Assembly (NCBI GenBank): GCA_016840465.1
Contig: JAEOSH010000002.1
Location: 1-32,000 of the forward strand
DNA: 32,000 nucleotides
Reading direction: 5' to 3'
Source of the DNA: Candidatus Baldrarchaeum yapensis
GTDB lineage: Archaea; Asgardarchaeota; Baldrarchaeia; Baldrarchaeales; Baldrarchaeaceae
Below the pieces are notes generated by a model that was not told where the DNA came from, made no database searches, and saw only the letters and a program-made list of their open reading frames with translations. This document shows, one piece after another, positions 1-16,912 of this stretch. The position numbers were made by a program, and so were the translations under genes. Every line of letters starts with the position of its first letter. Position 1 is the stretch's first letter.

Positions 1-465
1 GGGGCCTTCCGAGGGGTTTCGCGTCTTCACGGGGGACCACGTGCCCCTCTTCCCCTTCAGGCGCTCCCTCTGCCTTTGCAGTTCGGCGCGTACCAGGGAG
101 TCGAGGGTTTCTTCGGACGCGATGCGGGCCACTGTCTCAAGGGGGAGGCGGTTTGTGCACGAGGGCTGCGAACTCAGGCGGGTTGATTTTCCGCGGTAGC
201 CCGGTCGGTACGAGGAGGCGGAGTGCAGTTTTAAAGGAGAGGGGTTTGCGGAGCAGGAGGAGCGCGCTGCGTCATGCGGGATGTCTATATGCTGTTGCCC
301 ACAACAGTAGTATCGGGCGCGGCCGGACATGGCGGACCCTCTGTGTGCCTTGTGTTGGCGATATTACGGTGCCAGCCGCGCCCTTCTACTTTTTCGCACG
401 CTTGTCATAGACAATCGTTGGCTTGACAAAAGACAACCTTTTGGTGGGCTCGTTATGAGTAAAAG
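1..465. mobile_element. GC-rich segment abutting the 3' end of tRNA-Glu; possible degenerate mobile element or edge of an integrated element (runs off the left edge)
   Basis: Roughly 60-65% GC by eye against about 40% in the flanking genes. A minus-strand frame is open from ATG 330 to the window edge (...PLETVARIASEETLDSLVRAELQRQRERLKGKRG...), and a second protein-like frame suggests frameshifts. No diagnostic motif, TIR or att duplicate is visible. Confidence 0.35.
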
Positions 466-2475: not shown

Positions 2476-3195
2476 ATGAAAGGGGGACATAAATCGTTCG
2501 TACTATTAGTTATCATATTAGGCTTCGTTATTAGTACACACATATTTTTCACAATCGGCCTGAGAATTCTCCTTAACACGAATGAGCCAATTGTTGTTGT
2601 AACATCGGGAAGTATGGAGCCCTCAATCAAGGTTGGTGATATTTTAGTGCTGAGAGGTGCCACTCCTGATGAGATACACATTGGTGATGTAATATTATAC
2701 AGCGGAAGTGTACACGGACCGGATACTTTAATTGTACATAGAGTAGTAAAAAAATACAGTGTTGGAGACGAGATCTTTTTCATAACAAAGGGTGATGCAA
2801 ATCCGGCTGTCGACCCGGTGCCTGTTCCCTATTCAAAGGTTTTTGGTAAAGTTGTTTTGAGGATCCCCGTGCTGGGCTTTATATTGTTATGGTTAAAGGC
2901 GGGTGGTATAATCATATATGCGATTATTGTGCTTCTCATCATTGTCGCACTATGGGGTATTTATTCAAGTGAGACTGATGATATTTCTAATATTCATGTT
3001 CCTTCTCCAAATACTGAACTATTTTCCGATAATCTTCTCTTTCAATCCAGTTATTCCTTAAATACTCTTTCAGAAGTTCGGAAATTGTCAATATGCTATA
3101 GAGGGGTATTCCCTCCTTCTCCAAGATTCTTCTACCTCCTTGTTCTCTATCTAAGAGAACCACTGCACCTACGACTATTCCTCCTTCCTTTTTGA
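2476..3195 (+). CDS. Signal peptidase I (S26B/Sec11 type); 3' end extends antisense into pyrE
   Basis: N-terminal TM helix, VVTSGSMEP (catalytic Ser), GDILV, IVHRV (catalytic His), TKGDANPAVDP, and a C-terminal TM helix. Confidence 0.92.
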   Translation: MKGGHKSFVLLVIILGFVISTHIFFTIGLRILLNTNEPIVVVTSGSMEPSIKVGDILVLRGATPDEIHIGDVILYSGSVHGPDTLIVHRVVKKYSVGDEIFFITKGDANPAVDPVPVPYSKVFGKVVLRIPVLGFILLWLKAGGIIIYAIIVLLIIVALWGIYSSETDDISNIHVPSPNTELFSDNLLFQSSYSLNTLSEVRKLSICYRGVFPPSPRFFYLLVLYLREPLHLRLFLLPF

Positions 3196-3628
3196 TGCTT
3201 TTTGCAGCATTGAGTATGTTCCCACCTGTTGTTATCAAATCGTCAACTATTATTACCTTTTCTCCCTCGTTTAGTATTCCTTCAACTTGTTTCCTCATAC
3301 CATAGTCCTTCGCTTCTTTTCTAACATAAATCAGCGGCTTTTTGAGTTTGTAGCTCACAAGTGTTGCGATTACGAGACCCATTGTTGGGATTCCAGCTAT
3401 TTTATCGTAGTTTTCTTTAAAGGTGCTTTTTATCAGCATGACATATGCGTCACAGATTCTTGAGAAATATTCGGGGAAGCTTGGTAAAACCCTCAAATCG
3501 ATGTAATATGGACTATATTTTCCGGAACTGAGTACGAATTTTCCTATTTTTAGTGCGGAAATTTCGTACAATATTCTGCAGATATAATTTTTGTCAAACG
3601 ATTCTTGAAACTCTTTGTTTTTCATCAA
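2987..3628 (-). CDS. pyrE: Orotate phosphoribosyltransferase
   Basis: FVLSSGKYSPYYIDLR, YVRKEAKDYG, PRPP-binding VIIVDDLITTGG, VVLLDREQGG. Confidence 0.95.
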   Translation of the reverse strand: MMKNKEFQESFDKNYICRILYEISALKIGKFVLSSGKYSPYYIDLRVLPSFPEYFSRICDAYVMLIKSTFKENYDKIAGIPTMGLVIATLVSYKLKKPLIYVRKEAKDYGMRKQVEGILNEGEKVIIVDDLITTGGNILNAAKSIKKEGGIVVGAVVLLDREQGGRRILEKEGIPLYSILTISELLKEYLRNNWIEREDYRKIVQYLEKEHEY

Positions 3629-4331
3629 ATTCTACCCTCACTACCTCTAATATTTCACATTGGTGAGCGATCACCTGCGGTAAATATCTACTCACGAGCG
3701 ACGAAAACTCCTCTAAAGATTTTCTTTTGTCGGTATGAATTGGTATCGCAACTTTGGGATCGGTCAGTTTGACGATTTCGAATCCAGATCGTGGAGAGAG
3801 ATTTCTTGAGATGCCAACCGGGCAGAATGTTATTAATGGTTTGTATTTCTCTCCTATTACTTTCATTTCCGAATGAGGAACACTATCACCAGCATGAAAA
3901 ATTGAGAAATCTTTAAAGGACAACAAATAGGCAAGTGAATGAATTGCAGGGTGAATAGCTTCAATTGCAACTATTCTTATTCCACAAACTTCTTCACACC
4001 GTTTTGCGTTCATAGTAACCAAATAATCATTTTTTACATACTTTCTAAGCATATACGCTATTTTTTCTGGGATAACAACAGTAGCCTTCTTCTTCTCATG
4101 AAGCTTTCTGACGGTTAAGGGATCTAAATGATTCTTGTGCTCATGAGTTATTAGTATGAGGTCCACTTCACCTACTTCCTGCGCATCCATTCTTATCGGA
4201 TCAATGAATACCGTAAACTCCGAGGTTCTTATGATAACACTCCCATATCTGTTTATCCATGAGAAAAGTACAGCTCTATCGCTTGGTATTTCCTTGTAGA
4301 TCTCCATGTACATGCTCGGCAATTTTGACAC
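3594..4331 (-). CDS. Metallo-beta-lactamase fold hydrolase (UlaG-like)
   Basis: FIDP, DLILITHEHKNH (variant of THxHxDH), FHAGDS, PKVAIPIH. Confidence 0.85.
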   Translation of the reverse strand: MSKLPSMYMEIYKEIPSDRAVLFSWINRYGSVIIRTSEFTVFIDPIRMDAQEVGEVDLILITHEHKNHLDPLTVRKLHEKKKATVVIPEKIAYMLRKYVKNDYLVTMNAKRCEEVCGIRIVAIEAIHPAIHSLAYLLSFKDFSIFHAGDSVPHSEMKVIGEKYKPLITFCPVGISRNLSPRSGFEIVKLTDPKVAIPIHTDKRKSLEEFSSLVSRYLPQVIAHQCEILEVVRVEFDEKQRVSRIV

Positions 4332-4374
4332 CTATGACTATCGACAGAAAATCGGAGTTATCAGGATCTCCTTG

Positions 4375-4905
4375 TCACTTTTCGTCATCATCCTCCTCTA
4401 ATTCCTTGGCCATAAGATAGGCATCTTCTCCGTCGGAATAGTATCTTTTCAGAACTTTTACCTCTTTATATCCCAACTTCTTGTAGAGAGAGATTGCCGG
4501 AGTGTTGCTCACTCGCACCTCGAGCATCATTTCTTTTGCTCCATACTCCTTAAGGGCCTTTTCTGCCGCGCGTAGGAGAGCAGTTGCAATACCTTTTCTT
4601 CTATGTCCTGGCATGACCGCAATTGAGACCACATGCCCCTTTCTAGTAAGTTTTATGCCCATATTTGATAGACCATATTCGACCCTACACATGATATAAC
4701 CGACGACCTCGCCGTCTTTTTCCGCGATTAAAAACGCCTTAGGGAAATTCTGATGCAGGTATATGAAAAATGATGAGGGATAGTTTTCGGGAAGACATGT
4801 TTTATTTATTCTCATAACATCAGCTAATTTGTCTGCGGAGAAAACTTTTATTTTATAATCGCCAACTGTAGCGACAACGTCTTCTTCCTTGCTAAGCCTT
4901 TCCAC
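4375..4905 (-). CDS. GNAT N-terminal acetyltransferase (archaeal Ard1/RimI)
   Basis: INKTCLPENY, VGYIMCRVE, GHVVSIAVMPGHRRKGIA, LEVRVSNTPAISLYKKLGY, YYSDGEDAYLM. Confidence 0.93.
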   Translation of the reverse strand: MERLSKEEDVVATVGDYKIKVFSADKLADVMRINKTCLPENYPSSFFIYLHQNFPKAFLIAEKDGEVVGYIMCRVEYGLSNMGIKLTRKGHVVSIAVMPGHRRKGIATALLRAAEKALKEYGAKEMMLEVRVSNTPAISLYKKLGYKEVKVLKRYYSDGEDAYLMAKELEEDDDEK

Positions 4906-4989: not shown

Positions 4990-6108
4990 TTATTGATTCA
5001 TTTGCCTTCGGAATTTAAACCATATCCTACACGTACCTTCTTGTGAAACCATGCAAGGACCATAAGGAGACGCGGGTGTACAGACTTTACCGAACAGTTT
5101 GCACTGCGGAGGGTATATTTTTCCTATTAGTACTAGATGACATGAACAACCGGGCAGAATATCACGCGATTGATGTTCTAACCTGATATCGAACTTTTTT
5201 CTCGCGTCAAAGTTTTCATAAGGCTTTCTAAGAGAGAATCCGGACTTTGGAACCCTACCAATTCCTCTCCAATGAGCGCTCACGGGTACGAATACTTCAT
5301 TCATCGTCTCTTGCGCTTTGACGTTTCCCTCATACTTTACACATCTTAAATACTCGTTTTCACACTTTATGTCATTTGTTACTATTTGTTTGAGGATCAT
5401 GAGGACCGCTATAAGGATGTCAGCAGGCTCAAAGCCGGCAATCACTGTTGGCATGTTATAGGCATCTGCAAATATTTCAAACGGCTTTACACCGATTATT
5501 GTGGCTACATGTCCTGGACATATGAAACCATCTATATGTAAGTCGCCAATACCTAGCAACAATTCCATTATCGGCGGTATTAGCCTATGTGAACAGAGTA
5601 TACTGAAGTTCTCGGGTGGGTCATTTAAAATTAAGGATGCAACTCCGGGTGCTGTTGTTTCGAAGCCTACCGAGAAGAATACTACTTCTTTATCCTTATA
5701 CTTCTTAGCAAGCTGGACAGCATCGATAGGACTATACACAATTTTAACATTGGCACCTTCAGCACGTGCTTTCCACAGCGAGCTATATGATGCCGGTACC
5801 CGTGTCATGTCTCCGAACGTTGCTAATATTACATTTTCTTGCTTTGCTAGGAAAATTGCTTCATCGATTTCTTTTGCCGGAACAACACATACAGGACACC
5901 CAGGACCTGGCAACAACTCCACATTTTCGGGAAGAAGATCCCGTATACCATGCTGTGTTATCGATTGTTCATGTGTCGGTGCCGGTCACTGACCGGCAGT
6001 CCCGCACACGTGCATGATTTTTATTTTTCCGTGTACTTCTCCTGACAATATTTTTAATTTCCTTCTAACATTCTTAATGAATTCCTTATCTCTACCGAGA
6101 CCTAGCAA
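4990..6108 (-). CDS. hypD: [NiFe]-hydrogenase maturation protein HypD, interrupted by a 24-nt insert containing an in-frame TGA (364 aa if the insert is removed)
   Basis: TTG start at 6108 after a G-rich SD gives MLGLGRDKEFIK...IKIMHVCGT-[insert 5975-5998]-HEQSITQHGIRDLLPENVELLPGPGCPVC. Downstream motifs TFGDMTRVP, VGFETTAP, GFICPGHV, GFEP and the C-terminal Fe-S Cys set (GCSC...PPQCKLFGKVCTP...GPCMVSQEGTC) are intact. The supplied ORF track starts only at 5922. Confidence 0.93.
5975..5998 (-). other. 24-nt palindromic insert in hypD; candidate bulge-helix-bulge mRNA intron
   Basis: Minus-strand sequence TGCCGGTCAGTGACCGGCACCGAC. It contains the perfect inverted repeat TGCCGGTCA-G-TGACCGGCA and an in-frame TGA (5988-5986). 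Removal gives TGC GGG AC|A CAT GAA = C-G-T-H-E. Confidence 0.6.
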
Positions 6109-6763
6109 CGTATCCCCCCACGACTCCTTTTAATAATTCTAAATCTCTTTTAGAGTTCACATTTAGGAATGTTGTTAGCTTTGTATCCATGTTTTTTAGT
6201 ACATTTGTTGAAACATAAAGCACCCGCGTCAGCCTCTTAATCGCGCAACTGATTTTAAAGTTATGCTCAGTTGTGATCAGGTCGATGCATGCTTTATACA
6301 TCGCATCTGTTTTGTAAGCTGCATGAAGCGGTTCTAAATATCCATTCGGCCAGCGCGGTACTACTGCATCAGTGTCATTTAGGAGGCAGAGCCTTACTAG
6401 AAATGATACTACGTCCCTATTTGGGAACGGAGAATCACATGGTAACACTAATGTTACTTTCGTTTTTGAATACTTTAACGCCGATATTAACCCTATTATT
6501 GGAGCGTGAATGTCAGAGAATTCTTCATCGAACACTATTTTTACGTCCTCATATATTTCCTTAGAGAAAATTTTGTACTCCTCTGCCTGTCTGGAATCTT
6601 TAAACACTATGAAAATAGGATAGCCGAGAGAACGGCATGCCTCAATTATCCAGGAAATCATGCTTTTCCCGCGTATTTTATGGAGACACTTATTACCATG
6701 TCCGAATCTGCTCGACCTGCCGCCAGCTAGTATGGCTATGGATGCTCCTGTCATGAAGACCAC
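6092..6763 (-). CDS. mobA: Molybdenum cofactor guanylyltransferase
   Basis: ILAGGRSSRFG..NK, PIIGLISAL, LVLPCDSPF, VVPRWPNGYLEPLHAAY, FLNVNSKRDL. Confidence 0.9.
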   Translation of the reverse strand: MVFMTGASIAILAGGRSSRFGHGNKCLHKIRGKSMISWIIEACRSLGYPIFIVFKDSRQAEEYKIFSKEIYEDVKIVFDEEFSDIHAPIIGLISALKYSKTKVTLVLPCDSPFPNRDVVSFLVRLCLLNDTDAVVPRWPNGYLEPLHAAYKTDAMYKACIDLITTEHNFKISCAIKRLTRVLYVSTNVLKNMDTKLTTFLNVNSKRDLELLKGVVGGYVARSR

Positions 6764-15901: not shown

Positions 15902-16171
15902 ATGAAATTCGACCCATATAGTATCATACTTGGGATTGTGATGACCGAGAAAACACACAGATTGATGGAGATGGAAAACAAATTGACATTTATCGTCAGA
16001 AGAGATGCAAATAAAACTATGATTAAGCGTGCTGTTGAGGAGTTGTTTGGCGTTAAGGTGGAGAAGGTAAATACTTTGATAATGCCGGATGGTAAGAAAA
16101 AGGCTTACGTTAAGCTGAAACCTGAGTATAGCGCCGTCGATGTTGCGTCAAAAATGGGCGTGTTAATATAA
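15902..16171 (+). CDS. rpl23: 50S ribosomal protein uL23
   Basis: TEK...ENKLTFIV...[25 protein letters not shown]...KKAYVKL. Confidence 0.97.
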
Positions 16172-16192
16172 TAATCACATGAGGGGTTAGAA

Positions 16193-16912
16193 ATGGGTAA
16201 AAGGATACTAGTCCAGAGGAAAGGAAGAGGAGGACCAACATTCAGAGCGCCTTCACACAAGAGAATAGCACCTGTGAAATATCCGCCGCTCGATCCAAAT
16301 GTTACGATAAAGGGCAAAGTCGTCGATCTGGTTCACGAGCCTGGAAGATGCATGCCTGTTGCATTTATCAAATTGGAAAACGGACAGGAATGCGTATTAT
16401 TGCCGCATGAGGGATGTTATATAGGAGAGGAGATAGTGATAGGAGCAAATGCGCCCATCAAGATGGGCAATATACTCCCCTTGAAGGCAATTCCTGAAGG
16501 AACCCCCATATTCAATATTGAGAGCGAGCCAGGGGACGGCGGGAAATTTGTAAGGGCCTCAGGCACCTATGCTGTAATAACGACAAAAACTGCAACTAGC
16601 GTTTATGTGCAATTGCCATCGGGAAAAGTTAGAGAATTTCATCCTAACTGTCGTGCAACAATTGGTGTAGTCGCTGGTGGTGGAAGAACTGAGAAGCCAT
16701 TTGTGAAAGCGGGTAAAGTTTACCATCTATCTAAGGCCAAAAGTTGGAAATGGCCAGTGGTCAGGGGCGTTGCCATGAACCCTGTAGCGCACCCACACGG
16801 TGGTGGTAGTCATCAATCGCCTAGAAAACCCACCACAGTTTCGAGGAATGCTCCTCCGGGAAGAAAAGTTGGTCACATTGCTGCTAGGAGAACTGGACGC
16901 AAGAAGAAATAA
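16193..16912 (+). CDS. rpl2: 50S ribosomal protein uL2
   Basis: MGKRILVQRKGRG, HEPGR, GDGGKFVRASG, GGGRTEKPFVKAG, WPVVRGVAMNPVAHPHGGG, RKVGHIAARRTG. Confidence 0.98.
   Translation: MGKRILVQRKGRGGPTFRAPSHKRIAPVKYPPLDPNVTIKGKVVDLVHEPGRCMPVAFIKLENGQECVLLPHEGCYIGEEIVIGANAPIKMGNILPLKAIPEGTPIFNIESEPGDGGKFVRASGTYAVITTKTATSVYVQLPSGKVREFHPNCRATIGVVAGGGRTEKPFVKAGKVYHLSKAKSWKWPVVRGVAMNPVAHPHGGGSHQSPRKPTTVSRNAPPGRKVGHIAARRTGRKKK

Follow-up and report, generated by a model that had tools for sequence, protein, structure and literature searches.

According to Yokobori 2009 (PMC2738675), pre-mRNA splicing in archaea had been confirmed for no gene other than cbf5, and a 2023 review listed two archaeal mRNA targets of the splicing endonuclease, cbf5 and HVO_1309, with more that "remain to be discovered" (PMC10485636). 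Published coding-sequence introns of this kind are so far those of cbf5 only. Here we describe a 24-nt insert that splits hypD, a hydrogenase maturation gene, in the Asgard archaeon Candidatus Baldrarchaeum yapensis (GenBank assembly GCA_016840465.1). The window, meaning the whole stretch of DNA that was analysed, is 32,000 nt long (positions 1 to 32,000 of the forward strand of contig JAEOSH010000002.1), and coordinates refer to it unless another contig is named. Comparison of sequences leads us to read the 24 nt at 5998-5975, with a probability of roughly 0.85, as a bulge-helix-bulge (BHB) intron of the archaeal type in the pre-mRNA of hypD.

The hypD gene lies on the minus strand at 6108-4990 and is split at 5998-5975, where that strand reads ...AUG CAC GUG UGC GGG AC, followed by the insert UGCCGGUCAGUGACCGGCACCGAC and then by A CAU GAA.... 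The insert is much richer in GC (71%) than the hypD exons (42%) or the genome (46%), it carries an in-frame TGA at 5988-5986, and it separates CGT from HE in the CGTHE motif. Its removal gives MHVCGTHEQ within an open HypD frame of 364 codons (spliced ORF, or open reading frame, of 1095 nt), in which GPGCPVC, GFETT, CPGHV and the C-terminal Cys cluster are all kept. A profile search covered positions 5-350 of the 351 in the Pfam HypD profile with the TGA as the sole stop, and there were no other lesions in the 1095 nt. A first-pass annotation, made from the DNA letters, had described a 24-nt insert with an in-frame UGA splitting CGTHE in an otherwise intact hypD; the insert was confirmed to the base and the intactness of the rest by the profile. 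The parts of the gene are as follows.

5999 to 6108, minus strand: hypD exon 1, with a probable TTG start at 6108, comprising 36 codons and the first two bases of the Thr codon and ending ...MHVCG(T)
5975 to 5998, minus strand: putative BHB-type intron UGCCGGUCAGUGACCGGCACCGAC, 24 nt, at a site common to the 16-28-nt inserts of 11 other species
4990 to 5974, minus strand: hypD exon 2, with the third base of the Thr codon, HEQ... and the stop at 4992-4990; Pfam HypD 47-350 is matched on its 310-aa ORF

Inserts at the same site were found in other Asgard archaea. Four HypD matches in a first sample of 40 relatives started at profile position 29, right after CGT, and the DNA of those four relatives held inserts at the identical nucleotide position. 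The site pattern CAYNTNTGYGGNAC-12..42-CAYGARCA was then run over 400 genomes of the phylum and matched 12 of them, namely this genome, all five of family f8 and all six of family f18 (the reversed-pattern control gave 1). Families f8 and f18 are Jordarchaeia/Freyarchaeia (Jordarchaeales, Jordarchaeum and Freyarchaeota metagenome-assembled genomes, or MAGs) and include a closed chromosome, CP147778.1, with the site at about 2,580,005. In the 11 other genomes the insert is 16, 17 or 28 nt long, never a multiple of 3, so that the reading frame is broken unless it is removed. All 12 inserts share one layout (outer helix, CGGG, 3-nt bulge, hairpin, xCCG-type partner, 3-nt bulge, outer helix), and CGTHE is restored in every one if each bulge is cut behind its second base. 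When the 12 sequences were aligned, 94% of cells paired in the BHB register compared to 22-48% with the 3' partners slid, and both-side (compensatory) changes were seen at three pairs. The comparison of hypD orthologues for which the first-pass annotation had called showed same-site inserts in 11 further genomes.

The inserts of families f8 and f18 resemble the one described here in nucleotide position, in the exon strand CGGG, in an inner stem starting with GC and in a partner of the form xCCG followed by A. They differ from it in length (24 nt here), in a central helix that is fully paired, in their first intron base (A there, U here) and in belonging to a different taxonomic class, and they shift the frame where this genome's insert carries a stop instead. 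The Cys-Gly codons before the site are TGC GGG in all 12 intron-bearing genes and in none of 21 intronless Asgard genes, most of which have TGT GGA, and this hypD uses both codons sparingly, with TGC for 3 of its 13 Cys residues and GGG for 2 of its 27 Gly residues. This bias shows a codon choice apparently held by RNA structure, in which TGC GGG would supply the CGGG strand, and it offers a sequence-only signal for finding such introns. BHB geometry at the looseness seen here occurs in this genome at about 1.6e-4 per position and length (37,915 matches over about 51 lengths and 4.5 million positions, both strands counted), a frequency that makes it negligible that chance alone put the motif at the very site where 11 other species have it.

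Beyond the 400 genomes, a metagenome scan with the site pattern turned up no further lineage carrying an insert of this genome's kind; it gave seven matches, two of them true hypD genes (both Jordarchaeales-type) and five chance matches in GC-rich bacteria. A scan of genome contigs gave 55 matches, of which 8 were archaeal hypD genes, the remainder (including Halolamina) being taken as chance from their titles. Two truncated HypD calls, P0084 and P0112, were considered as intron-bearing and rejected, their genes being intact and intronless with mis-called starts, which means that truncation of HypD is by itself no marker of an intron.

The fold proposed for the insert and its flanks shows the hBHBh' motif (two opposed 3-nt bulges, a 4-bp helix and flanking helices) in a relaxed form, with these elements.

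6005 to 6008, minus strand: 5' strand UGUG of the outer exon-exon helix, pairing with CAUG at 5973-5970 (G-C, U-A, G-U, U-G)
6001 to 6004, minus strand: 5' strand CGGG of the central 4-bp helix, made of the last base of the Cys codon and the Gly codon, pairing with ACCG at 5980-5977
5998 to 6000, minus strand: 5' bulge ACU, with the predicted cut after its second base, between C5999 and U5998
5981 to 5997, minus strand: inner intron hairpin, a 7-bp stem GCCGGUC/GACCGGC with loop AGU, -11.6 kcal/mol alone
5977 to 5980, minus strand: 3' strand ACCG of the central helix (CCCG, CUCG or CCUG in the relatives)
5974 to 5976, minus strand: 3' bulge ACA, with the predicted cut between C5975 and A5974, giving GGG ACA CAU GAA
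5970 to 5973, minus strand: 3' strand CAUG of the outer helix, made of the His codon and the first Glu base

By this scheme the exon bases CGGG (of UGC GGG) would pair with the intron bases ACCG to form the central helix, with the 7-bp GC-rich intron hairpin on one side of it and the exon-exon helix UGUG/CAUG on the other, leaving the bulges ACU and ACA on opposite strands. A host endonuclease of the heterotetramer type (a catalytic alpha and a His-less beta subunit) would cut after the second base of each bulge, and RtcB would join the exons to restore the Cys-Gly-Thr-His-Glu active-site motif in a 364-aa HypD. The predicted spliced junction is GGGACACAUGAA, in which the end of exon 1, ...GTGTGCGGGAC, would be joined to ACATGAACAA, while on unspliced RNA translation would stop at the UGA after 40 codons. 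The register and cut rule drawn in the first-pass annotation give CGTHE as claimed, and the same rule works in the 11 relatives; the three caveats attached to it (a central G-A mismatch, two outer G-U pairs and a GAC repeat) were all correct. When a shifted register with GAC as the 5' bulge was considered, excisions of 25 or 26 nt would break the frame and it was rejected, so the drawn register is the only one both obeying the cutting rule and keeping the frame.

The genome encodes the enzymes that such splicing would use. There are two EndA paralogues of about 195 aa, each with both Pfam domains, an alpha on contig C56 (around 16145-16384) and a beta-like one on contig C53 (around 4158-4412). 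One of the paralogues is closest to the solved chains 3p1z_B, 3ajv_B and 2cv8_A, which we take to be crenarchaeal catalytic alpha subunits, and inspection of the two translations found no His in the other where the catalytic His of the first lies. RtcB is encoded on contig C30. The alpha/beta type of endonuclease is reported to accept relaxed motifs (PMC5829648), and this subunit arrangement has been linked to cbf5 splicing (PMC10485636). Aragorn detected 24 tRNA genes, 11 of them with introns; so small a number suggests that non-canonical or multiple introns conceal many more, which has been reported in other Asgard archaea.

Three other genes of this genome are split by BHB inserts. An AmmeMemoRadiSam radical-SAM gene (C66:13021-14132, minus strand) has a 29-nt GC-rich canonical insert inside its CX3CX2C motif (CNFTCP/W/CQNW), with TIGR04337 covered at 7-83 and 86-333. 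The gene for the gamma subunit of a 2-oxoacid:ferredoxin oxidoreductase (POR gamma; C56:106485-107133, minus strand) has a 28-nt insert with a 9-bp GC-rich stem, the Pfam POR profile being covered at 1-123 and 129-173 with the junction ...GIPVL/N/TPMLGA. The single-copy, full-length aIF5B gene (C67:52987-54768, minus strand, about 22 kb past the end of the window) has a 30-nt canonical insert with in-frame TGA and TAG, lying between Ile and Thr of REAGGI/TQHIG, with an outer helix of 6 bp and an intron stem of 9 bp. Canonical cuts restore frame and profile continuity in all three genes, and as aIF5B is essential it is no pseudogene, which means that the organism must remove such inserts from mRNA. 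A scan of the genome for other conserved genes broken by BHB hairpin inserts, as suggested in the first-pass annotation, gave the radical-SAM and POR gamma genes, and aIF5B was verified as well. Together with the same-site inserts and the host enzymes, these split genes support its proposal of an mRNA intron spliced by EndA and RtcB, and from them we infer that cleavage and ligation of the hypD transcript happen.

When the whole genome was scanned for BHB geometry and the candidates were filtered by ORF joining, the outcome was noisy (3033 candidates compared to 1369 in the control), and ranking by hairpin energy did no better than control, real cases occurring only among short GC-rich stems. 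Several candidates were rejected as split genes: a BcrAD-type ATPase on C89 is intact in another frame, C76 HAD/IGPD and the C67 window 3594-3628 are ordinary gene boundaries, and the second part of a PBP gene on C65 is without a family. On contig C52 (C52:27048-29592, plus strand) a 478-aa FAD-oxidase ORF and a 360-aa Fer4/CCG ORF are joinable via a weak 28-nt BHB-like insert, and these may be a split fusion or two neighbours. On C94 (minus strand, near 4372) and C21 (plus strand, near 3191) removal of about 91-92 nt would merge two open frames that each exceed 900 codons; either place may mark a giant gene that has a frameshift or an insert of greater length.

The insert is present in the DNA. 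Six public assemblies, two from JGI, two from Logan and one each from ENA and NCBI, were made by different pipelines from at least five samples and carry the locus with 0 mismatches in the 1119 nt of hypD including the insert; the population occurs in samples ERZ1742239, JGI 3300014911 and 3300022470, SRR14699971 and SRR6823441. This excludes the assembly or hairpin artefact that the first-pass annotation had named as a possible undoing of its reading, and it bears on the wider explanation that the 24 nt are a DNA-level artefact or a mobile footprint, such as the scar of a miniature inverted-repeat transposable element (MITE) or transposon with a 3-bp GAC duplication. That the insert is palindromic and lies between 3-nt direct repeats, in a genome which is a 100-contig MAG, speaks for such an origin. 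The 17-nt hairpin, however, occurs once in the window and once in the 2.27-Mb genome, allowing up to 2 mismatches, so that it has no other copies; the 11 other species have different insert lengths with the same RNA geometry at the same site; and a scar would not select TGC GGG, the flanking exon bases being part of the structure. We give an artefact or footprint hardly any credence.

Gene calls have been affected by the insert. HypD was called as a protein of 308-310 aa without the active-site Cys in five of the six assemblies, the exon-2 part being uncalled in the sixth, and exon 1 was called as a 40-aa orphan ORF in two of the six. A Freyarchaeia HypD cluster of 26 members is likewise annotated at 291-320 aa, and many Freyarchaeia records are cut short to 305-320 aa. 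Metabolic reconstructions may thus score hypD as broken, or accept a non-working product.

There are several points on the other side, which weigh against a working intron and which in part favour the only serious rival to it, namely that hypD is a pseudogene whose insert, a dead intron or an unrelated insertion, is no longer removed, for example after a C-to-A change in the central helix had killed splicing. The central helix here has three Watson-Crick pairs and a G-A mismatch, making this the weakest BHB among the 12 (the others have G-C at that place and 4 of 4 central pairs in all 11 relatives). The free RNA favours a competing fold, the minimum free energy (MFE) structure given by ViennaRNA, in which the hairpin is lengthened by pairing the first intron base U with the mismatched central-helix A, the 5' bulge is one base off (GAC) and the 3' bulge is 1 nt. 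Relative to the MFE the canonical BHB conformer costs 11.9 kcal/mol, the largest gap of the 12 introns, compared to 6.3-10.3 kcal/mol in the 11 relatives, a modelled gap which is at the margin of the range but does not fall outside it. Covariation is modest, its observed values being reached in 36 and 31 of 500 shuffles, and the 12 intron-bearing genes represent two or three independent lineages only. This insert is the only one of the 12 with a length divisible by 3, and hence it gains no direct support from the argument about frameshifts; it carries an in-frame TGA. The populations that were sampled are almost clonal, with an identity of at least 99.97% across 8.9 kb, and provide no test of selection, and with one species of the lineage available purifying selection is unmeasurable. 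A spliced-length HypD was not found in the protein collection, which has this gene only as 308-310-aa forms, a result that counts against splicing yet is uninformative either way.

Against a pseudogene, the 1095 nt contain no further lesion and the HypD motifs are intact. This is the one HypD match in the genome (2.27 Mb, 96% complete), so the second intact copy that the first-pass annotation had thought of as undermining its reading was absent by profile search, while HypC, HypF and three candidates for the large subunit of [NiFe] hydrogenase are encoded intact at other places in it. The rare helix codons TGC GGG have been kept on a long branch (0.45 changes per site in the HypD tree), the inner hairpin is perfect, and it is for the alpha/beta type of endonuclease that tolerance of relaxed motifs is reported (PMC5829648). 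Loss of function is on this balance improbable.

It is also conceivable that the RNA stays unspliced and is recoded in translation, the UGA being read as selenocysteine or Trp or the insert being bypassed in the manner of T4 gene 60. A length that is a multiple of 3, a stable hairpin and the flanking GAC repeat are features that fit with this. Read-through, though, would place 8 more residues inside the active-site motif, after its Thr and before its His, which was seen in none of 27 aligned intronless orthologues; take-off and landing codons of the gene-60 type that match in frame are absent, no take-off codon is followed at once by a stop, and the TGA is 4 codons past the Thr codon. The same-site inserts of 16, 17 and 28 nt share BHB geometry and not hop signals, and a terminator scan and an Rfam search of the hypD region found no element. 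Recoding is thus very improbable, and a spliced BHB intron is the explanation with which we continue.

Consideration was also given to how the intron came to be in this lineage. The gene has a MobA-like nucleotidyltransferase gene on one side and a GNAT acetyltransferase gene on the other, and is not part of a hyp operon.

6092 to 6763, minus strand: MobA-like nucleotidyltransferase gene (Pfam NTP_transf_3), directly upstream of hypD and overlapping its start

The class of this genome is represented by five species in the collection, and the other four (family f2) have an intact, intronless hypD. A MobA-like gene was found directly before hypD here, in those f8/f18 loci that were long enough, in a Guaymas Freyarchaeia contig and in intronless family f10. 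In the f2 class-mates no such gene was seen in the roughly 1.5 kb next to hypD. In a HypD tree families f8 and f18 formed one clade (support 99/99), and the HypD of this genome, on its long branch, stood apart from f2 and beside the f9/f10/f8/f18 group; the upstream MobA-like gene and the neighbouring HypD proteins are thus further likenesses to the f8/f18 loci. An approximately unbiased (AU) test did not reject a clade uniting the 12 intron-bearing proteins (p = 0.279) and rejected a clade of this genome with f2 (p = 2.5e-48), the latter grouping having been named after the tree was seen.

The shared MobA-like/hypD pair and the HypD phylogeny suggest transfer of the locus. The intron here is probably homologous to that of Jordarchaeia/Freyarchaeia hypD, and it may have arrived together with the mobA-like/hypD gene pair. 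Two readings fit these data, namely that the intron was gained once and the gene pair was then transferred, or that it was gained long ago and has since been lost in places, and independent gain at the same hypD site may be a further one. A broader picture, which we offer tentatively as possible rather than probable, would be that the hypD intron was gained once and moved between Asgard classes, from a Jordarchaeia-like donor to this lineage, with the mobA-like/hypD pair, as part of a larger unpublished Asgard population of endonuclease-spliced mRNA introns in GC-rich catalytic-motif codons, at least four genes including aIF5B being hit in this genome, and that the relaxed motif and competing fold could tie HypD output to splicing efficiency. 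That hydrogenase biogenesis is regulated through splicing is speculation.

A full-text literature search found no paper linking hypD with an archaeal intron. The Freyarchaeia genome paper (PMC11291895) reports tRNA introns only, and neither an Asgard tRNA-intron preprint nor a literature search combining Asgard, BHB and mRNA yielded mRNA introns. What is new here compared with published cases is that the affected gene is a metabolic one and that the intron position is conserved across two classes.

Archaeal tRNA and rRNA introns have the BHB motif in common with the hypD insert, and EndA and RtcB, which process them, are the enzymes predicted for it; in Freyarchaeia 92-95% of tRNA genes are interrupted (PMC11291895). 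Unlike these, the hypD substrate would be an mRNA, so that no tRNA body would aid recognition and the product must keep its reading frame. The intron of HVO_1309 in Haloferax volcanii (Schwarz 2020, PMC7714728, as summarised in PMC10485636) is likewise in an endonuclease-cut mRNA, the second published archaeal mRNA target, and its host differs in being a euryarchaeon with an alpha2-type enzyme. The closest likeness is to the cbf5 intron of Crenarchaeota (Yokobori 2009, PMC2738675; Watanabe 2002; Yoshinari 2006), which is also a short intron in protein-coding sequence at a catalytic motif, with a relaxed BHB formed partly of exon bases, predicted cuts after the second bulge base, alpha-beta endonuclease hosts, lineage-specific presence with apparent loss, and a record of being missed by gene finders. 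The cbf5 gene encodes a pseudouridine synthase and its intron is found in Thermoproteota, whereas hypD is a hydrogenase maturation gene in an Asgard archaeon and the two are without sequence relation; splicing of cbf5 was demonstrated by cDNA and in vitro cleavage, whereas that of hypD is what we infer from conserved site and geometry. Taking these likenesses and differences together, the hypD insert very probably belongs to the cbf5-type class of endonuclease-spliced mRNA introns.

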